Assembly: GCA_965230925.1 (NCBI GenBank)
Contig: OZ246403.1
Location: forward strand, 646,541-710,540
DNA: 64,000 nt
Origin: an uncultured Candidatus Saccharibacteria bacterium
GTDB taxonomy: Bacteria > Patescibacteriota > Minisyncoccia > Phycocordibacterales > JACOZG01
Direction: 5' to 3'
In this document: positions 3,275 through 38,231 of the stretch, in pieces
Layout of the letters: each line of letters begins with the position of its first letter
How positions within the stretch are numbered: position 1 is the first letter of the stretch
Notes under the pieces: model-generated
Told to the model about the DNA's origin: nothing
The model's input: the letters and a program-made list of their open reading frames with translations, nothing else
Databases searched by the model: none
Position numbers and translations under genes: made by a program

Positions 3275-4144
3275 ATGAATAGCGAGGAGACCAAGCAAAA
3301 GTTAGCAGAACTCGAGGTGGCCATGGCGGCGCCCGATTTTTGGGCCGACAAAAATCGGGCGCAAGAACTCGTTCGTGAATATCAGGACTTAAAAGAAGAG
3401 TTAGAAAGTGGTGGCGTTGGTGGCTACGACAAGGGCGACGCAATTATCACCCTTTTCTCTGGCGCTGGTGGTGATGACGCTGAAGATTTTTCTCGCATGC
3501 TCTATGAGATGTATGATAAGTGGGCGGTGGCGCAGGGTTTCGAAATTTTTTTGGTCCACGACAACCAGAATGATCACGGCGGCTATCGCAATATTACTTT
3601 TGAAGTGCGTGGTCGCGGAGCCTATGGTAAACTAAAAACTGAATCAGGCGTCCATCGCTTGGTTCGGGTTTCCCCTTTTAGCGCTAAGAAGTTACGCCAC
3701 ACTTCGTTCTCGCTGGTGGAAGTAATTCCTCGATTGCCTAAGGCAAAGGCGGTAGATATCCCCGAAACGGATTTGAAAATTGAGTTCTCACGTTCATCTG
3801 GTCCTGGTGGGCAAAATGTGAATAAGCGCGAGACAGCGGTGCGCCTTGTCCATATTCCCACTGGTCTCGCGGCGCACTCGTCCAATGAGCGCAGTCAGGA
3901 GCGCAACCGCGAGAAGGCGCTCGAGATCTTAGTGGGCAAGCTCCATAAGCGGCAAGAAGAAGAGCGACTGGCTAAAGAACAAGGAATGTATATTTCTAAA
4001 ACGACGGAAATCGAGTGGGGGAATCAAATTCGTTCGTACGTTTTACATCCTTACCAATTGGTAAAAGATCATCGCAGTGGTGTGGAAGATCGTGATGTGG
4101 AAAAAGTGCTCGGTGGTGATCTCTCAACTTTTATTCCCAATTAA
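3275..4144 (+). CDS. prfB: Peptide chain release factor 2 (compact form, no programmed frameshift)
   Basis: SPF tripeptide (VSPFSAKKLRHTSF) and GGQ motif (SGPGGQNVNK). The ORF begins 4 nt after tRNA-Thr(CGT), so there is no upstream frame-0 mini-ORF. Confidence 0.9.
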   Translation: MNSEETKQKLAELEVAMAAPDFWADKNRAQELVREYQDLKEELESGGVGGYDKGDAIITLFSGAGGDDAEDFSRMLYEMYDKWAVAQGFEIFLVHDNQNDHGGYRNITFEVRGRGAYGKLKTESGVHRLVRVSPFSAKKLRHTSFSLVEVIPRLPKAKAVDIPETDLKIEFSRSSGPGGQNVNKRETAVRLVHIPTGLAAHSSNERSQERNREKALEILVGKLHKRQEEERLAKEQGMYISKTTEIEWGNQIRSYVLHPYQLVKDHRSGVEDRDVEKVLGGDLSTFIPN

Positions 4145-23980: not shown

Positions 23981-25015
23981 ATGGATCATCAGAAATTGCA
24001 GCCCTATTTTCTTCTTATTCTCATTTTTGTTCTCGCGGTGCTGGTGTTCTTTCTTCTTAAGCCGGTATTCGCTGGCTTGGTGCTTGCCGCCGTTCTCGCG
24101 GTGGTCTTTCATCCGCTTAAGCAATCGATGCTCATCTTTACTCGCGGTCGGGCGAGCCTTGCGTCTTTCTTTAGCACCGTTTTAATTATTTGTTTGATCC
24201 TTGTGCCGCTTAGCCTGCTTGGTACGCAGATTGTCCGTGAGGCCCAATCTCTTTACCAGAATTTAGCCGTTGGTCAGTGGTCAGCGGGGAAAGTTTTTTC
24301 TCAAGTCTCGGCTGGAGAACTGCAGCAATATTTACAACAGGCTCTCTCTTGGCTCATTAGTCGGCTTGGCTCCATTTTCTCTAGCGTGGCCAAGGTGATG
24401 CTCAACCTCTTGGTTTTCTTTATTGCCCTCTATTATTTCTTGAGGGATGGTGGTCGTTTCAAGCGCGCGGTGGTTCTCTTAAGCCCGCTCTCCGATGCGC
24501 GCGATGAATTTGTCCTCAATCGCCTGGTTCTCGCGGTGAACTCAGTCGTGCGCGGCAATCTTCTCATCGCTTTAATTCAAGGCTTACTCACCGCGATCGG
24601 CTTTTCTATTTTTGGCGTGCCGCACTTTGTTCTTTGGGGACTCATGGCTGCCTTGGCTGCCCTCATCCCGGGTTTTGGTACTGCGCTTGTGATTGCGCCA
24701 GCGATTGTTTACCTTTTTCTCACGGCACACACCGGGATGGCGATTGGACTTCTTATCTGGGGAATTCTCGCGGTCGGTCTTATCGATAATTTGCTTGGAC
24801 CAGCACTAGTAGGTCGGGGAATGCGTTTACATCCGCTCTTAGTTCTCCTCGCGGTGATTGGCGGTCTTGCCCTTTTTGGTCCCACTGGTTTTGTTCTTGG
24901 CCCCTTGGTGATGAGCCTCCTCTTTGCCTTGCTTGATATTTACTCCAACTTGTCGGGGATCGCCCAGAACGGGCTCGCTGAGAAGGAGAATTCCTCCCGG
25001 CCGCAAGTTTCCTAA
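23981..25015 (+). CDS. AI-2E family transporter (PerM/UPF0118)
   Basis: About 8 TM with C-terminal GILAVGLIDNLLGPALVG...GLALFGPTGFVLGPLVMSLLFALLDIY. Start moved to ATG 23981 because the track's 23807 start overlaps the HlyD gene. Confidence 0.75.
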   Translation: MDHQKLQPYFLLILIFVLAVLVFFLLKPVFAGLVLAAVLAVVFHPLKQSMLIFTRGRASLASFFSTVLIICLILVPLSLLGTQIVREAQSLYQNLAVGQWSAGKVFSQVSAGELQQYLQQALSWLISRLGSIFSSVAKVMLNLLVFFIALYYFLRDGGRFKRAVVLLSPLSDARDEFVLNRLVLAVNSVVRGNLLIALIQGLLTAIGFSIFGVPHFVLWGLMAALAALIPGFGTALVIAPAIVYLFLTAHTGMAIGLLIWGILAVGLIDNLLGPALVGRGMRLHPLLVLLAVIGGLALFGPTGFVLGPLVMSLLFALLDIYSNLSGIAQNGLAEKENSSRPQVS

Positions 25016-25663
25016 AATAATTTCTCCAATTCGTAATCTTATCAATCGCGTGACGGTAAGATTAATGTGCGCACACATTCGCCGAATTTGATGTTTCCGC
25101 CCTTCGCGGAGAATAATACGGAAAGTGTGCTCATCGAGGAGCTCGGCTTGAGCCGGGAGTGTAGGACCATCTTCTAAGGTCATACCTTGTTCCAGGGCTT
25201 TGATTTTTGTTTGACTTAAGCTTTCTCGCACTGAGACCTCATATTCTTTTTCCATTTCATGTTCTTCACCAGTCACTTGCCGGGCGAGCACGCCGTCGTT
25301 TGAGAGAAGAAGCAACCCTTCGCTGTCCTTATCGAGCCGACCGAGAATATTTAAATTTTTATACTCAGGCAAGAGATCAAACACAGTTTCGCTTGCCTCG
25401 CCGAAGCGTTGCGAAGGCGGGCCTTCGCTCGAATTCTTCGAGCACACCACGCCACGCGGCTTATGATAAGCCACGGTAATTTTATTTACCCTGAGCGAAG
25501 TCGAAGGGTCTAAGAGCTCAACCTTATCTTTCTCTGGGTCCATTTGCCGACCCAAATCGCGAATCACTTCGCCATTGAGTTTTACGAGCCCGGCCTTCAT
25601 GAGTGCCTCCGCTTCCCGCCGCGACGCCAACCCCTGCTCCGAGAGATACTTTTGAATACGCAT
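24839..25663 (-). CDS. rluB: Pseudouridine synthase, RsuA/RluB family
   Basis: N-terminal S4 domain (RIQKYLSEQGLASRREAEALMKAG), catalytic GRLDKDSEGLLLLSNDG, KHQIRRM; basic C-terminal tail. Confidence 0.8.
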   Translation of the reverse strand: MRIQKYLSEQGLASRREAEALMKAGLVKLNGEVIRDLGRQMDPEKDKVELLDPSTSLRVNKITVAYHKPRGVVCSKNSSEGPPSQRFGEASETVFDLLPEYKNLNILGRLDKDSEGLLLLSNDGVLARQVTGEEHEMEKEYEVSVRESLSQTKIKALEQGMTLEDGPTLPAQAELLDEHTFRIILREGRKHQIRRMCAHINLTVTRLIRLRIGEIILGNLRPGGILLLSEPVLGDPRQVGVNIKQGKEEAHHQGAKNKTSGTKKGKTANHREEN

Positions 25664-25672
25664 CAGCCTATG

Positions 25673-25700
25673 TTGACATAAAAACAGGTCGCGTTACAAT
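25673..25700 (+). promoter_or_regulatory. Near-consensus sigma70 promoter (TTGACA-N16-TACAAT)
   Basis: -35 TTGACA at 25673-78 and -10 TACAAT at 25695-700, inside a 555-bp intergenic region. Confidence 0.5.
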
Positions 25701-25726
25701 GGGGGCGTATGTTAGATTCCGTAATT

Positions 25727-25830
25727 ATGATTTCTGCTTTGCTCCTCACCCTTGGTGCGACGTATTTTTATGCGTGGCATTTTATTATGCGCAAGCAATT
25801 TATCATGGTTGGGGAATTATCTCAGATTTA
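25727..25830 (+). CDS. Candidate 34-aa hydrophobic micropeptide (MISALLLTLGATYFYAWHFIMRKQFIMVGELSQI), or a small-RNA body
   Basis: Lies between the consensus promoter and the terminator at 25856-25890. No clear SD, so it may equally be non-coding. Below the ORF-track size cutoff. Confidence 0.25.
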
Positions 25831-25855
25831 AATTACAAAGTTTAACTAAATCAGG

Positions 25856-25890
25856 ATCAAAACCCCGACCAGAGATGGTCGGGGTTTTTC
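25856..25890. terminator. Rho-independent terminator (bidirectional A-run/T-run)
   Basis: AAAA-CCCCGACC-AGAGAT-GGTCGGGG-TTTTTC. Confidence 0.8.
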
Positions 25891-25999
25891 GGGTCTTGGT
25901 GCCAGAATGTTCCAAAAATGTTTTGACACCAGCACCTGATCGGAGTGGGTCAGAATTGCTGGAGGCCTCGTTAGTTCATTCGTAAAGGAAGAGAGGGTT

Positions 26000-26146
26000 A
26001 TGTTTAGGTACGCACCAGATCCAGAAGTTGTGGTTGAAAAGAAAGAGGATCAGAAAACTAATTCCTTCGATCACGTATCAAGTGTGGACGGTCAAACCGT
26101 ATCCACCCCAAACGAATTGGGAGATTATCGAGGAAATATGGTGTGA
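26000..26146 (+). CDS. Candidate 48-aa acidic small protein
   Basis: Strong SD AAAGGAAGAGAGGG 5 nt before the ATG. Product MFRYAPDPEVVVEKKEDQKTNSFDHVSSVDGQTVSTPNELGDYRGNMV. Followed by hairpin GGGCGCAGT-TTCGA-CTGCGTCCC. Confidence 0.3.
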   Translation: MFRYAPDPEVVVEKKEDQKTNSFDHVSSVDGQTVSTPNELGDYRGNMV

Positions 26147-26218
26147 GTAAAACTTACACCGAACCACCGGGCGCAGTTTCGACTGCGTCCCCATTTATCA
26201 ATTAATAGTCTTCGCAAT

Positions 26219-27514
26219 ATGAATGACTACAGAAAATTATTACAAACATTTGTCGCTTTTCCGAGCATTTCAGCCGATCCAGCACGGAAAGGAGTAATGC
26301 AAGAAACAGCAAATTGGCTGCGCGACCAGTTAAAAGAAAGTCGGTTCAAGACAAAAATCTATCGTGGTTACGGAAACCCTGTGGTTTTCGGCCACTATCA
26401 GGTTAGTCCGAAAGCGCCGATATATCTCATTTATGGTCACTACGATGTGCAGCCGGCGAGTCATGAGGATGGGTGGAAATCTGATCCTTTTACTCTCGCC
26501 GAGCGCGGTAGCCGCTTCTACGCGCGTGGTGTGGCTGATAATAAAGGGCAAATTTTAATCCACTTGCGCGCCGCTTTTGAATTAATTAAAACTAAAAAGC
26601 TTGCTTACAACCTTAAATTTCTGATTGAGGGAAATGAAGAAACTGGTTCGGGGAATCTGCGCCAGCTTTTGGTTGATTATAAAAAAGATTTGGCAGCCGA
26701 TTGCGTAATTATTTCTGATGGCGATATTCCCAACTCTGCCCCAGCTATTGAAGCCAGTTTCCGTGGCACCTTCAATGTTGAACTTACACTTACGACTTCG
26801 AGTAAAGATTTACATTCTGGTCTCTTCGGTGGCACGGTGCCCAATGCTGCTCAAGTCTTGATTGATCTTTTGGCAACACTGCGAACAAAAGAAGGTGAGG
26901 TGGCGATTAATCAGTTTGCCGAAAATTTGCCAGAGGTTTCGGTAAATATCACTTCGCATTTCGAGCGCCGTTTATATTGCGACCTCACGGGTTGCCGCGA
27001 AGTGTTTGTAAATTCAGCAGAAGAACTAATGCGCAAAACTGGTTTGCAATCTGCTATTGAGATCACAGGCTTCAAGACTGGCTATACCGGCGAAGGGTTT
27101 CGTAATAGTATCCCGGCGGTCGCGAGTGCGAAGATTAACGTGCGCCTCGCACCGGGGCAAAAACCAGACGACCTCATTCGGTATTTCCGCTCGCACTTAC
27201 TCAAGAATGTTCCGAGTTATGCCACTCTTAATATTTCAATTACCGAAGGGGTTGCCGGGGTATTGCTTGATACAAATAATCCGCACGCTGTTCGTGCTAA
27301 GAATATTCTCACTGAAGTATACGGTGTCTCACCAATCGCTAAATATAGTGGGGGAACTTTGCCAATAGTTCGCGACTTCCAAGAAGTGTTAAAAATTTCT
27401 CAAGTAATGATCCCGCTCGCCAATGAAGATTGTGGTATGCACGCGGCAAATGAGAACTTCAAAATTGCTAATGTCAAAAAAGGGTTAGCCTTCAGTAAAA
27501 GCTTTTTCTCCTAA
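26219..27514 (+). CDS. M20 family metallopeptidase (dipeptidase / ArgE-DapE-CPG2 family)
   Basis: HYDVQP, GVADNKG, EGNEETGS metal-ligand blocks. Confidence 0.8.
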   Translation: MNDYRKLLQTFVAFPSISADPARKGVMQETANWLRDQLKESRFKTKIYRGYGNPVVFGHYQVSPKAPIYLIYGHYDVQPASHEDGWKSDPFTLAERGSRFYARGVADNKGQILIHLRAAFELIKTKKLAYNLKFLIEGNEETGSGNLRQLLVDYKKDLAADCVIISDGDIPNSAPAIEASFRGTFNVELTLTTSSKDLHSGLFGGTVPNAAQVLIDLLATLRTKEGEVAINQFAENLPEVSVNITSHFERRLYCDLTGCREVFVNSAEELMRKTGLQSAIEITGFKTGYTGEGFRNSIPAVASAKINVRLAPGQKPDDLIRYFRSHLLKNVPSYATLNISITEGVAGVLLDTNNPHAVRAKNILTEVYGVSPIAKYSGGTLPIVRDFQEVLKISQVMIPLANEDCGMHAANENFKIANVKKGLAFSKSFFS

Positions 27515-30388: not shown

Positions 30389-30409
30389 TCCTAACCACAG
30401 TGGTTATTT

Positions 30410-30450
30410 AACACCCGCGTCGTGCGTTGCGACTCGGGTGTTTTCATTTT
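30410..30450 (+). terminator. Rho-independent terminator
   Basis: ACACCCG-17 nt-CGGGTGT then TTTTCATTTT. Confidence 0.7.
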
Positions 30451-30524
30451 GAGTGTTTTTCCTTTTGTGATAAATTGGAACAAGCGTTTTTTTGTTCCAA
30501 TGTTTTTTGCCAAGGAGGGCGACG

Positions 30525-30692
30525 ATGAACGACAATAAGAAAAAAACGGTCGTTTTCCTACGACCCAACCCTTCTCCGCCTAAAACATGCCGGCGTTGTG
30601 GTCAACCATTAGACCGCAAAGCCAGCGGTACTGGTATTTGTCCCAACAGCCAATGTGGGGCGAAGTATTTAGCAAAGGCCATTCCTCAGTGA
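30525..30692 (+). CDS. Small zinc-ribbon protein (55 aa)
   Basis: SD CCAAGGAGGG 6 nt before the ATG. CRRC...(16)...CPNSQC four-Cys ribbon. The leader contains an extended -10-like TGTGATAAAT and hairpin TTGGAACAA-GCGTTTTTTT-GTTCCAA. Confidence 0.45.
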   Translation: MNDNKKKTVVFLRPNPSPPKTCRRCGQPLDRKASGTGICPNSQCGAKYLAKAIPQ

Positions 30693-37964: not shown

Positions 37965-38231
37965 ATGATTTATTTACTCATCTACTTTGTCGCGGGAATT
38001 ATTCAAGATTTTGTGCTCACGCTCAATTGGCAGTTTGTGGCGCGGCACAAGCCATTACCGGCGACATTTTTCTCTTTTCTCGCCACTTTTTTCTCCTGGG
38101 TAATTTTCTACGATGTGCTTACACGGCTTGATGGCGACCGTAGTTTGGTCGCCATCATTGTTTACTCACTGGGTATTGGTGTTGGGACTTATCTTGCGAT
38201 GAAGTCCGGTATCGGAGCGGAGAAAAAGTAA
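37965..38231 (+). CDS. Small membrane protein (88 aa, 3 TM)
   Basis: Hydrophobic product; probably translated from a leaderless mRNA. Confidence 0.5.
   Translation: MIYLLIYFVAGIIQDFVLTLNWQFVARHKPLPATFFSFLATFFSWVIFYDVLTRLDGDRSLVAIIVYSLGIGVGTYLAMKSGIGAEKK

Follow-up and report, generated by a model that had tools for sequence, protein, structure and literature searches.

Here, we analysed a window of 64,000 nt from an uncultured Candidatus Saccharibacteria bacterium (contig OZ246403.1, positions 646,541–710,540 of the forward strand), and in particular a 555-bp intergenic gap at positions 25664–26218 of that window, which are the coordinates used throughout. The gap separates a gene for an RluB/RluF-type pseudouridine synthase from a gene for an M20 family metallopeptidase, after which typA/bipA is the next gene, and it holds a promoter-terminator unit (25673–25889), from which the pseudouridine synthase gene runs divergently, enclosing a 40-codon open reading frame (ORF), here ORF40. 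On a gene map of 58 ORFs of at least 110 amino acids (aa), which also underlies the start-site and codon counts given below, this is the largest tRNA-free gap in the window, most gaps being shorter than 120 bp. The unit consists of the following features.

25673–25700, plus strand: predicted sigma-70-type promoter, TTGACA (25673–25678), a 16-nt spacer and TACAAT (25695–25700), an 11/12 match
25707–25709, plus strand: transcription start as placed by geometry, 7–9 nt past the -10 box, at the ATG or 2 nt before it
25709–25831, plus strand: ORF40, MLDSVIMISALLLTLGATYFYAWHFIMRKQFIMVGELSQI, 40 codons with a TAA stop at 25829–25831; hydrophobic helix at residues 4–27, then R28 K29
25715–25731, plus strand: region 1, the 5′ arm of a long-range stem in both the minimum free energy (MFE) and centroid folds, containing a second ATG (25727)
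25802–25818, plus strand: region 2, the 3′ arm of the long-range stem, with a core that is also complementary to the 5′ arm of the terminator
25859–25889, plus strand: intrinsic terminator made up of regions 3 and 4, with a 13-bp stem, a T-run and, on the 5′ side, an A-tract that gives it a two-way look

An earlier note on this DNA had singled out a consensus-like promoter and a textbook terminator as a pair that would rarely arise by chance, and our analysis bears this out. TTGACA-16-TACAAT has both the hexamers and the 16–18-nt spacing of a sigma-70-type promoter. Over the whole window and both strands, 4 matches at the 11/12 level were observed, against 0.68 ± 0.8 expected from first-order Markov simulations, an enrichment of about 6-fold, and the remaining three each lie directly upstream of a gene start. 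In the terminator, a perfect inverted repeat of 13 bp, AAAACCCCGACCA / TGGTCGGGGTTTT (25859–25871 / 25876–25888), encloses a GAGA loop and is followed by TTTTT, the T-run reaching 25889 and the predicted free energy being about -18 to -23 kcal/mol; the element thus combines a GC-rich stem-loop with a U-run at the end of a transcription unit. A standard terminator scan missed this hairpin, probably through the extension of its stem into A/T tracts. Our own hairpin-plus-T scan returned about 10 comparable sites in the window, all of them intergenic and at operon ends. Thus, the organism uses intrinsic terminators, and the one at 25859–25889 is typical of them. The coupling of promoter and terminator exceeds chance expectation, and we hold it to be highly probable that the unit 25673–25889 is real. 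Chance juxtaposition, or a set of relics in which the terminator serves some other purpose and no functional unit exists, could draw on the complete lack of conservation evidence described below, on the two-way look of the terminator and on the 0.68 promoters of this quality expected in the window. However, no minus-strand gene to the right would need such a terminator, and the promoter, a leaderless ATG, gene-like codons, a stop codon 27 nt before the stem and the long gap itself would hardly coincide, so that this explanation is very unlikely.

Translation starts in the window look predominantly leaderless, because a -10-like hexamer (at least 4/6 matches, with A2 and T6) lies 5–9 nt before 28 of the 58 start codons, most often at 6 nt, and a convincing Shine-Dalgarno (SD) sequence precedes only about 5 of the 58 genes. 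Several sites that look like SDs (7844, 45128) prove to be TAGGAT boxes located 6 nt ahead of the ATG. The ATG at 25709 sits 8 nt past TACAAT with no SD and hence has the arrangement of a leaderless gene, that is, a start 5–9 nt past a -10 box. Small leaderless membrane-protein genes that are absent from the 110-aa map also occupy other gaps in the window: the SecG gene (58650–58414, minus strand; 78 aa; Pfam 1.4e-12) has TAGAAT, 8 nt and ATG, the same gap as ORF40, and an 88-aa DUF5698-like protein (37965–38231, plus strand; 24.5 bits, just under the Pfam cut-off) has TATAAT, 7 nt and ATG. The 34-aa hydrophobic frame that the earlier note placed at 25727..25830 does exist, in frame with ATG 25709, but its proposed start is the less probable one. 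Given that 25709 fits the leaderless geometry, whereas 25727 is buried in a predicted stem and has no ribosome-binding site, the ORF is best read as 40 codons, and a leaderless start at 25709, giving 40 aa, is more likely than one at 25727, giving 34 aa.

ORF40 also carries a host-like codon signature. In a codon log-odds score trained on the 58 window genes and compared with in-frame 40-codon windows and with spurious ATG-started ORFs, it attains 0.30; among the 40-codon windows taken from real genes this is the 56th percentile, and none of the 217 spurious ORFs of 30–70 codons scores as high. Both other frames at the locus score negatively, and just 0.2% of the shuffles of ORF40 itself attain its score. 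Its synonymous usage alone stands at the 76th percentile of real genes, a level reached by none of 2000 uniform-synonymous recodings. The encoded peptide has a grand average of hydropathy (GRAVY) of 1.03, and its best 19-aa Kyte-Doolittle window averages 1.71 (residues 4–22), so that the hydrophobic segment is of the length, at least about 19 aa, needed to span a membrane. The stretch MLDSVIMISALLLTLGATYFYAWHFIMR of the predicted product would be a target for proteomics.

We therefore propose, with a probability of roughly 0.5, that the unit is a leaderless gene that stands on its own and encodes a single-pass membrane micropeptide of 40 aa. The near-consensus sigma-70 promoter would initiate RNA at about 25707–25709, placing AUG 25709 at the 5′ end of the transcript or within 2 nt of it, and translation would then begin in the leaderless fashion that is the commonest start type in the window. 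The product would be a peptide of 40 residues with one membrane-spanning helix (residues about 4–27), its acidic N-terminus facing outward and R28 K29 and the 11-residue tail remaining in the cytoplasm, and the intrinsic terminator, whose stem starts 27 nt past the stop codon, would end transcription. The promoter, the terminator, the ORF with its codon bias, the hydrophobic helix and the leaderless geometry are all present in the DNA, and from these we infer transcription, translation, membrane insertion and the existence of a partner: the peptide would most likely reside in the membrane and serve another membrane protein as a small accessory or modulator.

Several observations weigh against this proposal. 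At 8 nt, the gap before the ORF40 start is near the upper limit of the leaderless range, and a stable stem beginning 6 nt past AUG 25709 could hinder initiation. Sequence rich in T readily yields hydrophobic frames, and we estimate at about 5–10% the chance of an open 40-codon frame in 150 nt. The public assemblies of the same organism have no gene call for ORF40. A phmmer search with ORF40 against 1.84 billion representatives found no homologue, neither the window nor the 93 fetched loci contain a paralogue, and no Pfam or NCBIfam family matches ORF40. Finally, the strand-specific RNA structure and the antiterminator complementarity described below would be superfluous for a plain coding gene and point to a function at the RNA level.

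Other searches gave a similar picture. Two phmmer matches to ORF40 were dismissed as artefacts of tandem-repeat or hydrophobic stretches. Pfam and NCBIfam had no match for either micro-ORF of the gap, ORF40 or the 48-codon ORF48 downstream of the unit, or for two overlapping ORFs, and in an exact look-up, the 40-aa and 34-aa products were absent from the protein collection. Searches with blastn and tblastn, using the gap and both peptides against 89 loci and the window, returned nothing except a 13-nt motif upstream of the M20 gene. Synteny searches with M20, TypA and RluB turned up no relative that carries the unit; L088, with a TypA in the same 90% cluster, is without the locus. The best M20 homologue in the genome and metagenome collections and the protein database has 51% identity, the best RluB homologue has 61%, and the nearest relatives share about 50–60% protein identity in the flanking genes with no synteny. 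Because these relatives are too distant and not syntenic, conservation is uninformative here and can neither confirm nor refute the unit, which is an orphan of known classes, with no detectable relatives.

The earlier note had left the choice between a micropeptide and a small regulatory RNA (sRNA) of about 180 nt. The self-contained unit that both require is present, and the gene-like codons, the start in the leaderless pattern and the single hydrophobic helix favour a membrane micropeptide over an sRNA that is purely non-coding. On the non-coding alternative, RNA 25707–25889 would act in trans and the ORF would be incidental. In keeping with this, the promoter-terminator pair is clean, gene finders do not call ORF40 and the RNA is structured in a strand-specific manner: the plus strand 25707–25892 folds at -63.7 kcal/mol against -39.8 ± 4.1 in shuffles (z = -5.8), and the transcript body without the terminator still gives z = -3.6 on the plus strand, compared with -0.6 on the minus strand. 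However, codon usage is gene-like in one frame only, and an ATG stands exactly at the position where leaderless genes of this genome start. Nor did Rfam, a scan of which the earlier note had proposed, offer any family at the unit: at the gathering threshold the whole window contains tRNAs only, and at E <= 10 the gap region matches only terminator look-alikes of at most 24 bits (DsrA, C0465, rnk leader), far below threshold. With no candidate target pairing identified and no conserved homologue that could provide covariation, we consider a trans-acting sRNA improbable.

The same structure accommodates another explanation, the main rival to the micropeptide gene and compatible with it, namely, that the unit is a translation-coupled transcription attenuator, a leader for ORF48 and possibly M20. 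Regions 1 and 2 form a long-range stem of about 16 bp (duplex -18.3 kcal/mol), and the core of region 2, UGGUUGGGG (25806–25814), complements the 5′ arm of the terminator, CCCCGACCA (25863–25871), so that, according to the fold models, region 2 can serve as an antiterminator strand, with a 2:3 duplex of -17.5 to -18.5 kcal/mol. The best duplex of the terminator arm with the upstream 150 nt, at -17.5 kcal/mol against -9.6 ± 2.2, was reached by 0 of 300 dinucleotide shuffles. By contrast, 12 of 13 control terminator arms, a set that includes the 25859–25889 terminator read on the minus strand, were matched by at least 109 of 300 shuffles, and the thirteenth (21791, plus strand) by 8 of 300. ORF40 spans regions 1 and 2, its stop codon lying just past region 2. 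A terminator is thus accompanied by a mutually exclusive antiterminator and anti-antiterminator, and in the modelled folds the 1:2 / 2:3 / 3:4 arrangement is the classical attenuator layout. By default, region 1 would pair with region 2, the 3:4 terminator would form and transcription would stop at 25889; a ribosome in the first two-thirds of ORF40 would free region 2 to pair with 25863–25871, allowing read-through. Indeed, when nascent RNA extending to 25876 is folded with region 1 or the middle of the ORF masked, the 2:3 antiterminator becomes the MFE structure, whereas the unmasked RNA adopts 1:2. The stall site could be the aromatic/His cluster YFYAWHF of ORF40 (Y19-F-Y-A-W-H-F25).

Against an attenuator, the terminator is always favoured at equilibrium (-63.7 kcal/mol for the full-length terminator fold, compared with -48.8 for the antiterminator fold), ORF40 contains no tandem identical codons of the kind that regulate known leaders, and gene-like codons together with a transmembrane helix would be unusual in a leader peptide. 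The other considerations on both sides concern the region downstream and the relatives. The features that flank the unit are as follows.

24839–25663, minus strand: RluB/RluF-type pseudouridine synthase (S4 and PseudoU_synth_2) from the ORF list, with the Pfam domains found on an identical Logan contig; homologues at most 61% identical
25985–25997, plus strand: SD-like purine-rich run AAGGAAGAGAGGG, upstream of ORF48
26000–26146, plus strand: ORF48, a 48-aa acidic ORF, called as a gene in public assemblies; coding status ambiguous
26140–26190, plus strand: two adjacent hairpins between ORF48 and M20 (z = -4.26)
26193–26205, plus strand: ATTTATCAATTAA, 13 nt before the M20 start and just past the hairpin, shared with relatives
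26219–27514, plus strand: M20 family metallopeptidase/dipeptidase, its long start supported by the N-termini of homologues

If the unit were a leader, its transcript would have to extend into this region, and no plus-strand promoter of at least 9/12 was found between 25700 and 27252, as an attenuator would lead one to expect. The 110 nt between the terminator and ORF48 nevertheless leave room for a promoter. They include a weak extended -10 candidate, TGcCAGAAT (25900–25908), which lies 91 nt before ORF48, within the 50–92-nt range of the SD-led genes of the window; upstream of M20, the window has only a poor -10-like box (AATAGT, 9-nt gap), and the M20 genes of relatives appear to have their own -10 box 6 nt before the ATG. 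Because no promoter of at least 9/12 is present and yet weak candidates lie upstream of both ORF48 and M20, read-through from the strong promoter into these genes is possible but not required.

ORF48 itself is a mixed case. The acidic ORF and the SD-like purine run to which the earlier note drew attention are both there, but synonymous codon usage is poor, at the 11th percentile of real genes, and relatives are lacking: ORF48 is present only in the same organism by exact look-up, and a word-based search with it retrieved itself only. Its codon log-odds of 0.18 lies at the 25th percentile, with 6% of spurious ORFs scoring higher, and ORF48 is best described as an unconfirmed orphan. The hairpin that the earlier note assigned to ORF48 turned out to be two: the first (26140–26160) spans the ORF48 stop codon and the second (26169–26190) is GGGCGCAGU-UUCG-ACUGCGUCC. 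A hairpin also occupies the position before M20 in the relatives L003, L005, L007, L090, L091 and L092. Immediately beyond the hairpins, the 13-mer ATTTATCAATTAA recurs in identical form at L005 3971–3983 and L006 306–318, 13–19 nt upstream of the M20 start, and L003 retains its core 11-mer TTATCAATTAA (3972–3982; 12 of 13 positions). The genomes with the exact ATTTATCAATTAA have M20 proteins only about 49% identical, and the motif may be an operator or a promoter-proximal element, its significance deriving from the shared position alone. As for the M20 gene, the protein at NCBI has 405 aa, presumably from ATG 26297, after GGAAAGGAG. Alignments with homologues begin at residue 1 of the 431-aa form (KLL..FV...S.S.DP), so that the annotation has probably placed the start too far downstream.

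A further point in favour of attenuation comes from a clade of other Patescibacteria (L003, L005/L006 and L090), the M20 proteins of which are 58–62% identical to each other. In this clade, a leader of some 150 nt with a terminator at its end comes first, followed by small SD-led ORFs, a hairpin and M20. The regions upstream of M20 in these and other Patescibacteria contain the following.

L003 3088–3237; L005 3540–3690 (= L006); L090 about 1506–1668: conserved leader
L005 3715–3912; L003 3479–3907 (C-terminus); L091 1800–2015; L092 1–60; L090 2230–2423: members of a small-protein family

The clade leader is more conserved (78–92% nucleotide identity) than the adjacent M20 coding sequence (71–73%). 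It opens with a leaderless ORF of 29–32 codons (M..KNHYCF...RTDFCAL.N) and has a 10-bp 1:2 stem, GCAAAAAUCA:UGAUUUUUGC, a terminator with one compensatory change and an antiterminator, GAGAGGACUG:CAGUCCUCUC, of -16.6 to -18.8 kcal/mol that was reached by at most 2 of 300 shuffles. The leader has no match in Rfam, and its motif was not found in viral contigs; we consider it a candidate new attenuator or riboswitch-like element. The window unit lies at the same relative position and likewise has a leaderless short ORF, a 1:2 stem and, at about -17 to -19 kcal/mol, a 2:3 antiterminator, but the clade ORF is basic, whereas ORF40 is hydrophobic and gene-like, and the clade terminator lies 25–30 nt from the next SD, compared with 110 nt to the next ORF in the window. 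Homology between the two was rejected: a local alignment scored the same as shuffles, and no match at 25664–25900 was obtained with a covariance model of the three leaders, the best match in the window lying elsewhere with E = 0.15. Because the same design recurs at the same relative position ahead of small ORFs, a hairpin and M20, the case for attenuation gains weight in spite of the missing homology. On the whole, we regard an attenuator at this locus as possible, albeit doubtful.

The small-protein family (...DG.TV...P[DE]GEWP.I..GG...[IV].SGPGHRDTI) is encoded directly upstream of M20 in several Patescibacteria. A Pfam search with the L005 member found nothing, and a relationship of ORF48 to this ‘GEWP...SGPGHRDTI’ family was rejected by both BLASTP and hhalign.

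The two functions could also be combined, with ORF40 encoding a membrane peptide and at the same time acting as the sensor of a ribosome-dependent attenuator that gates read-through into ORF48 and M20. The progress of the ribosome through the transmembrane and aromatic segment would then select either 1:2 with the terminator or the 2:3 antiterminator, and slowing might result from scarce aromatic aminoacyl-tRNAs or from limited membrane-insertion capacity. Such a dual role, which we rate as rather unlikely, would parallel by analogy the unrelated, similarly built leader conserved at the same position in the clade.

Returning to the membrane micropeptide, a small single-pass peptide with a charged tail is also what a type I toxin-antitoxin-like module would encode, in which a 40-aa membrane toxin is made from an mRNA with an inactive structured form and is countered by an antisense RNA. 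The mRNAs of hok and aapA1 have a long-range 5′–3′ stem, which, by analogy, the 1:2 stem might resemble. A source of the antisense RNA could be the minus-strand promoter-like ATGATA-16-TAAAAT at 25806–25779, which would also give rise to a 5′ untranslated region (UTR) of the rluB-like gene, and a 16-nt inverted repeat (25677–25692 / 25757–25772) could fold the antisense RNA. However, this antisense promoter reaches only 9/12, a level seen 7 times in 4 kb where 4.1 are expected; ORF40 has no similarity to known toxin families and no extra copies; and its promoter is very strong. Moreover, the ORF40 mRNA would be leaderless, whereas type I toxin mRNAs have 5′ UTRs and none is known to be leaderless. 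A module of this kind thus appears to be a most improbable explanation. The inverted repeat itself, complementary at 14 of 16 positions, runs from the promoter spacer to the middle of ORF40 and is, on a rough estimate, borderline relative to chance; a minus-strand transcript from about 25772 would give the rluB-like gene a 5′ UTR of 109 nt, within which the repeat would fold into a long-range stem. An origin of the gap from a mobile element or repeats was considered and rejected, there being no notable flanking repeats.

Several features of the wider context were noted in passing. The window sequence is also present on public Logan contigs and on one NCBI contig, and the named homologues of the flanking genes are from Patescibacteria throughout. 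The rluB-like gene and a gene for an AI-2E-family transporter converge, with an overlap of 177 bp (24839–25015). The pseudouridine synthase has 274 aa, compared with about 223–266 aa in its homologues, and because these are shorter and align to only 81–88% of the 274-aa protein, a lysine/glycine-rich C-terminal extension of about 40 residues is suggested. Elsewhere in the window, the gap between the NDK and 2-hydroxyacid dehydrogenase genes (30389–30586) contains two hairpin-plus-T sites in tandem (T-runs at 30441 and 30503), the second of which could be an attenuator instead of a back-up terminator.

Small proteins and regulatory RNAs of Patescibacteria (also known as the Candidate Phyla Radiation, CPR) are largely uncharted, since the bacteria are not in culture and such short ORFs are passed over by gene callers; our literature search for sRNAs or riboswitches in CPR bacteria gave none. 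The locus offers a clean, testable case of a micro-gene overlooked by annotation, in a genome that spans about 0.7 Mb and wastes little space. Were the unit an attenuator, it would be an instance of classic ribosome-coupled transcription control exerted from a leaderless ORF, and it would put a peptidase under the influence of nutrient or membrane status in an auxotrophic Patescibacteria bacterium that scavenges amino acids. Until one of these roles is borne out by expression data or by more closely related genomes, the finding changes existing knowledge only modestly.

Among known systems, each of the functions considered here has a counterpart that matches the unit in part. Like dual-function sRNAs (SgrS/SgrT, RNAIII/hld, SR1/SR1P), the unit would yield a structured RNA, some 180 nt long and with a small ORF inside, from a promoter and terminator of its own, but no target pairing or homology is known, and the likeness is one of analogy alone. 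Type I toxins (Hok, TisB, Fst, AapA1) share the small hydrophobic peptide and an mRNA with 5′–3′ pairing, whereas the unit differs in its predicted leaderless mRNA and in lacking homology, multiple copies and a convincing antisense RNA gene. The attenuators trpL, pheL and hisL have the same 5′ short ORF, three mutually exclusive pairings, 1:2, 2:3 and 3:4, and a terminator at the end, whereas ORF40 is leaderless and hydrophobic, and has 40 codons without tandem regulatory codons, the terminator is separated by 110 nt from the next ORF, and what follows is a tiny acidic ORF and a peptidase rather than a biosynthetic operon. Small membrane proteins of less than 50 aa (AcrZ, KdpF, CydX and subunits of the size of SecG) lack sequence similarity to ORF40, which has no match to a Pfam or NCBIfam model and no obvious partner complex next to it; the YFYAW of ORF40 may resemble a CydX motif, without support from Pfam. 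Nevertheless, it is with these proteins that the predicted micropeptide shares its general design, one hydrophobic helix followed by basic residues within 40 aa, encoded between a promoter and terminator of its own in a gap overlooked by gene callers, and with the SecG gene of the same window, ORF40 has in common the geometry of its leaderless start.

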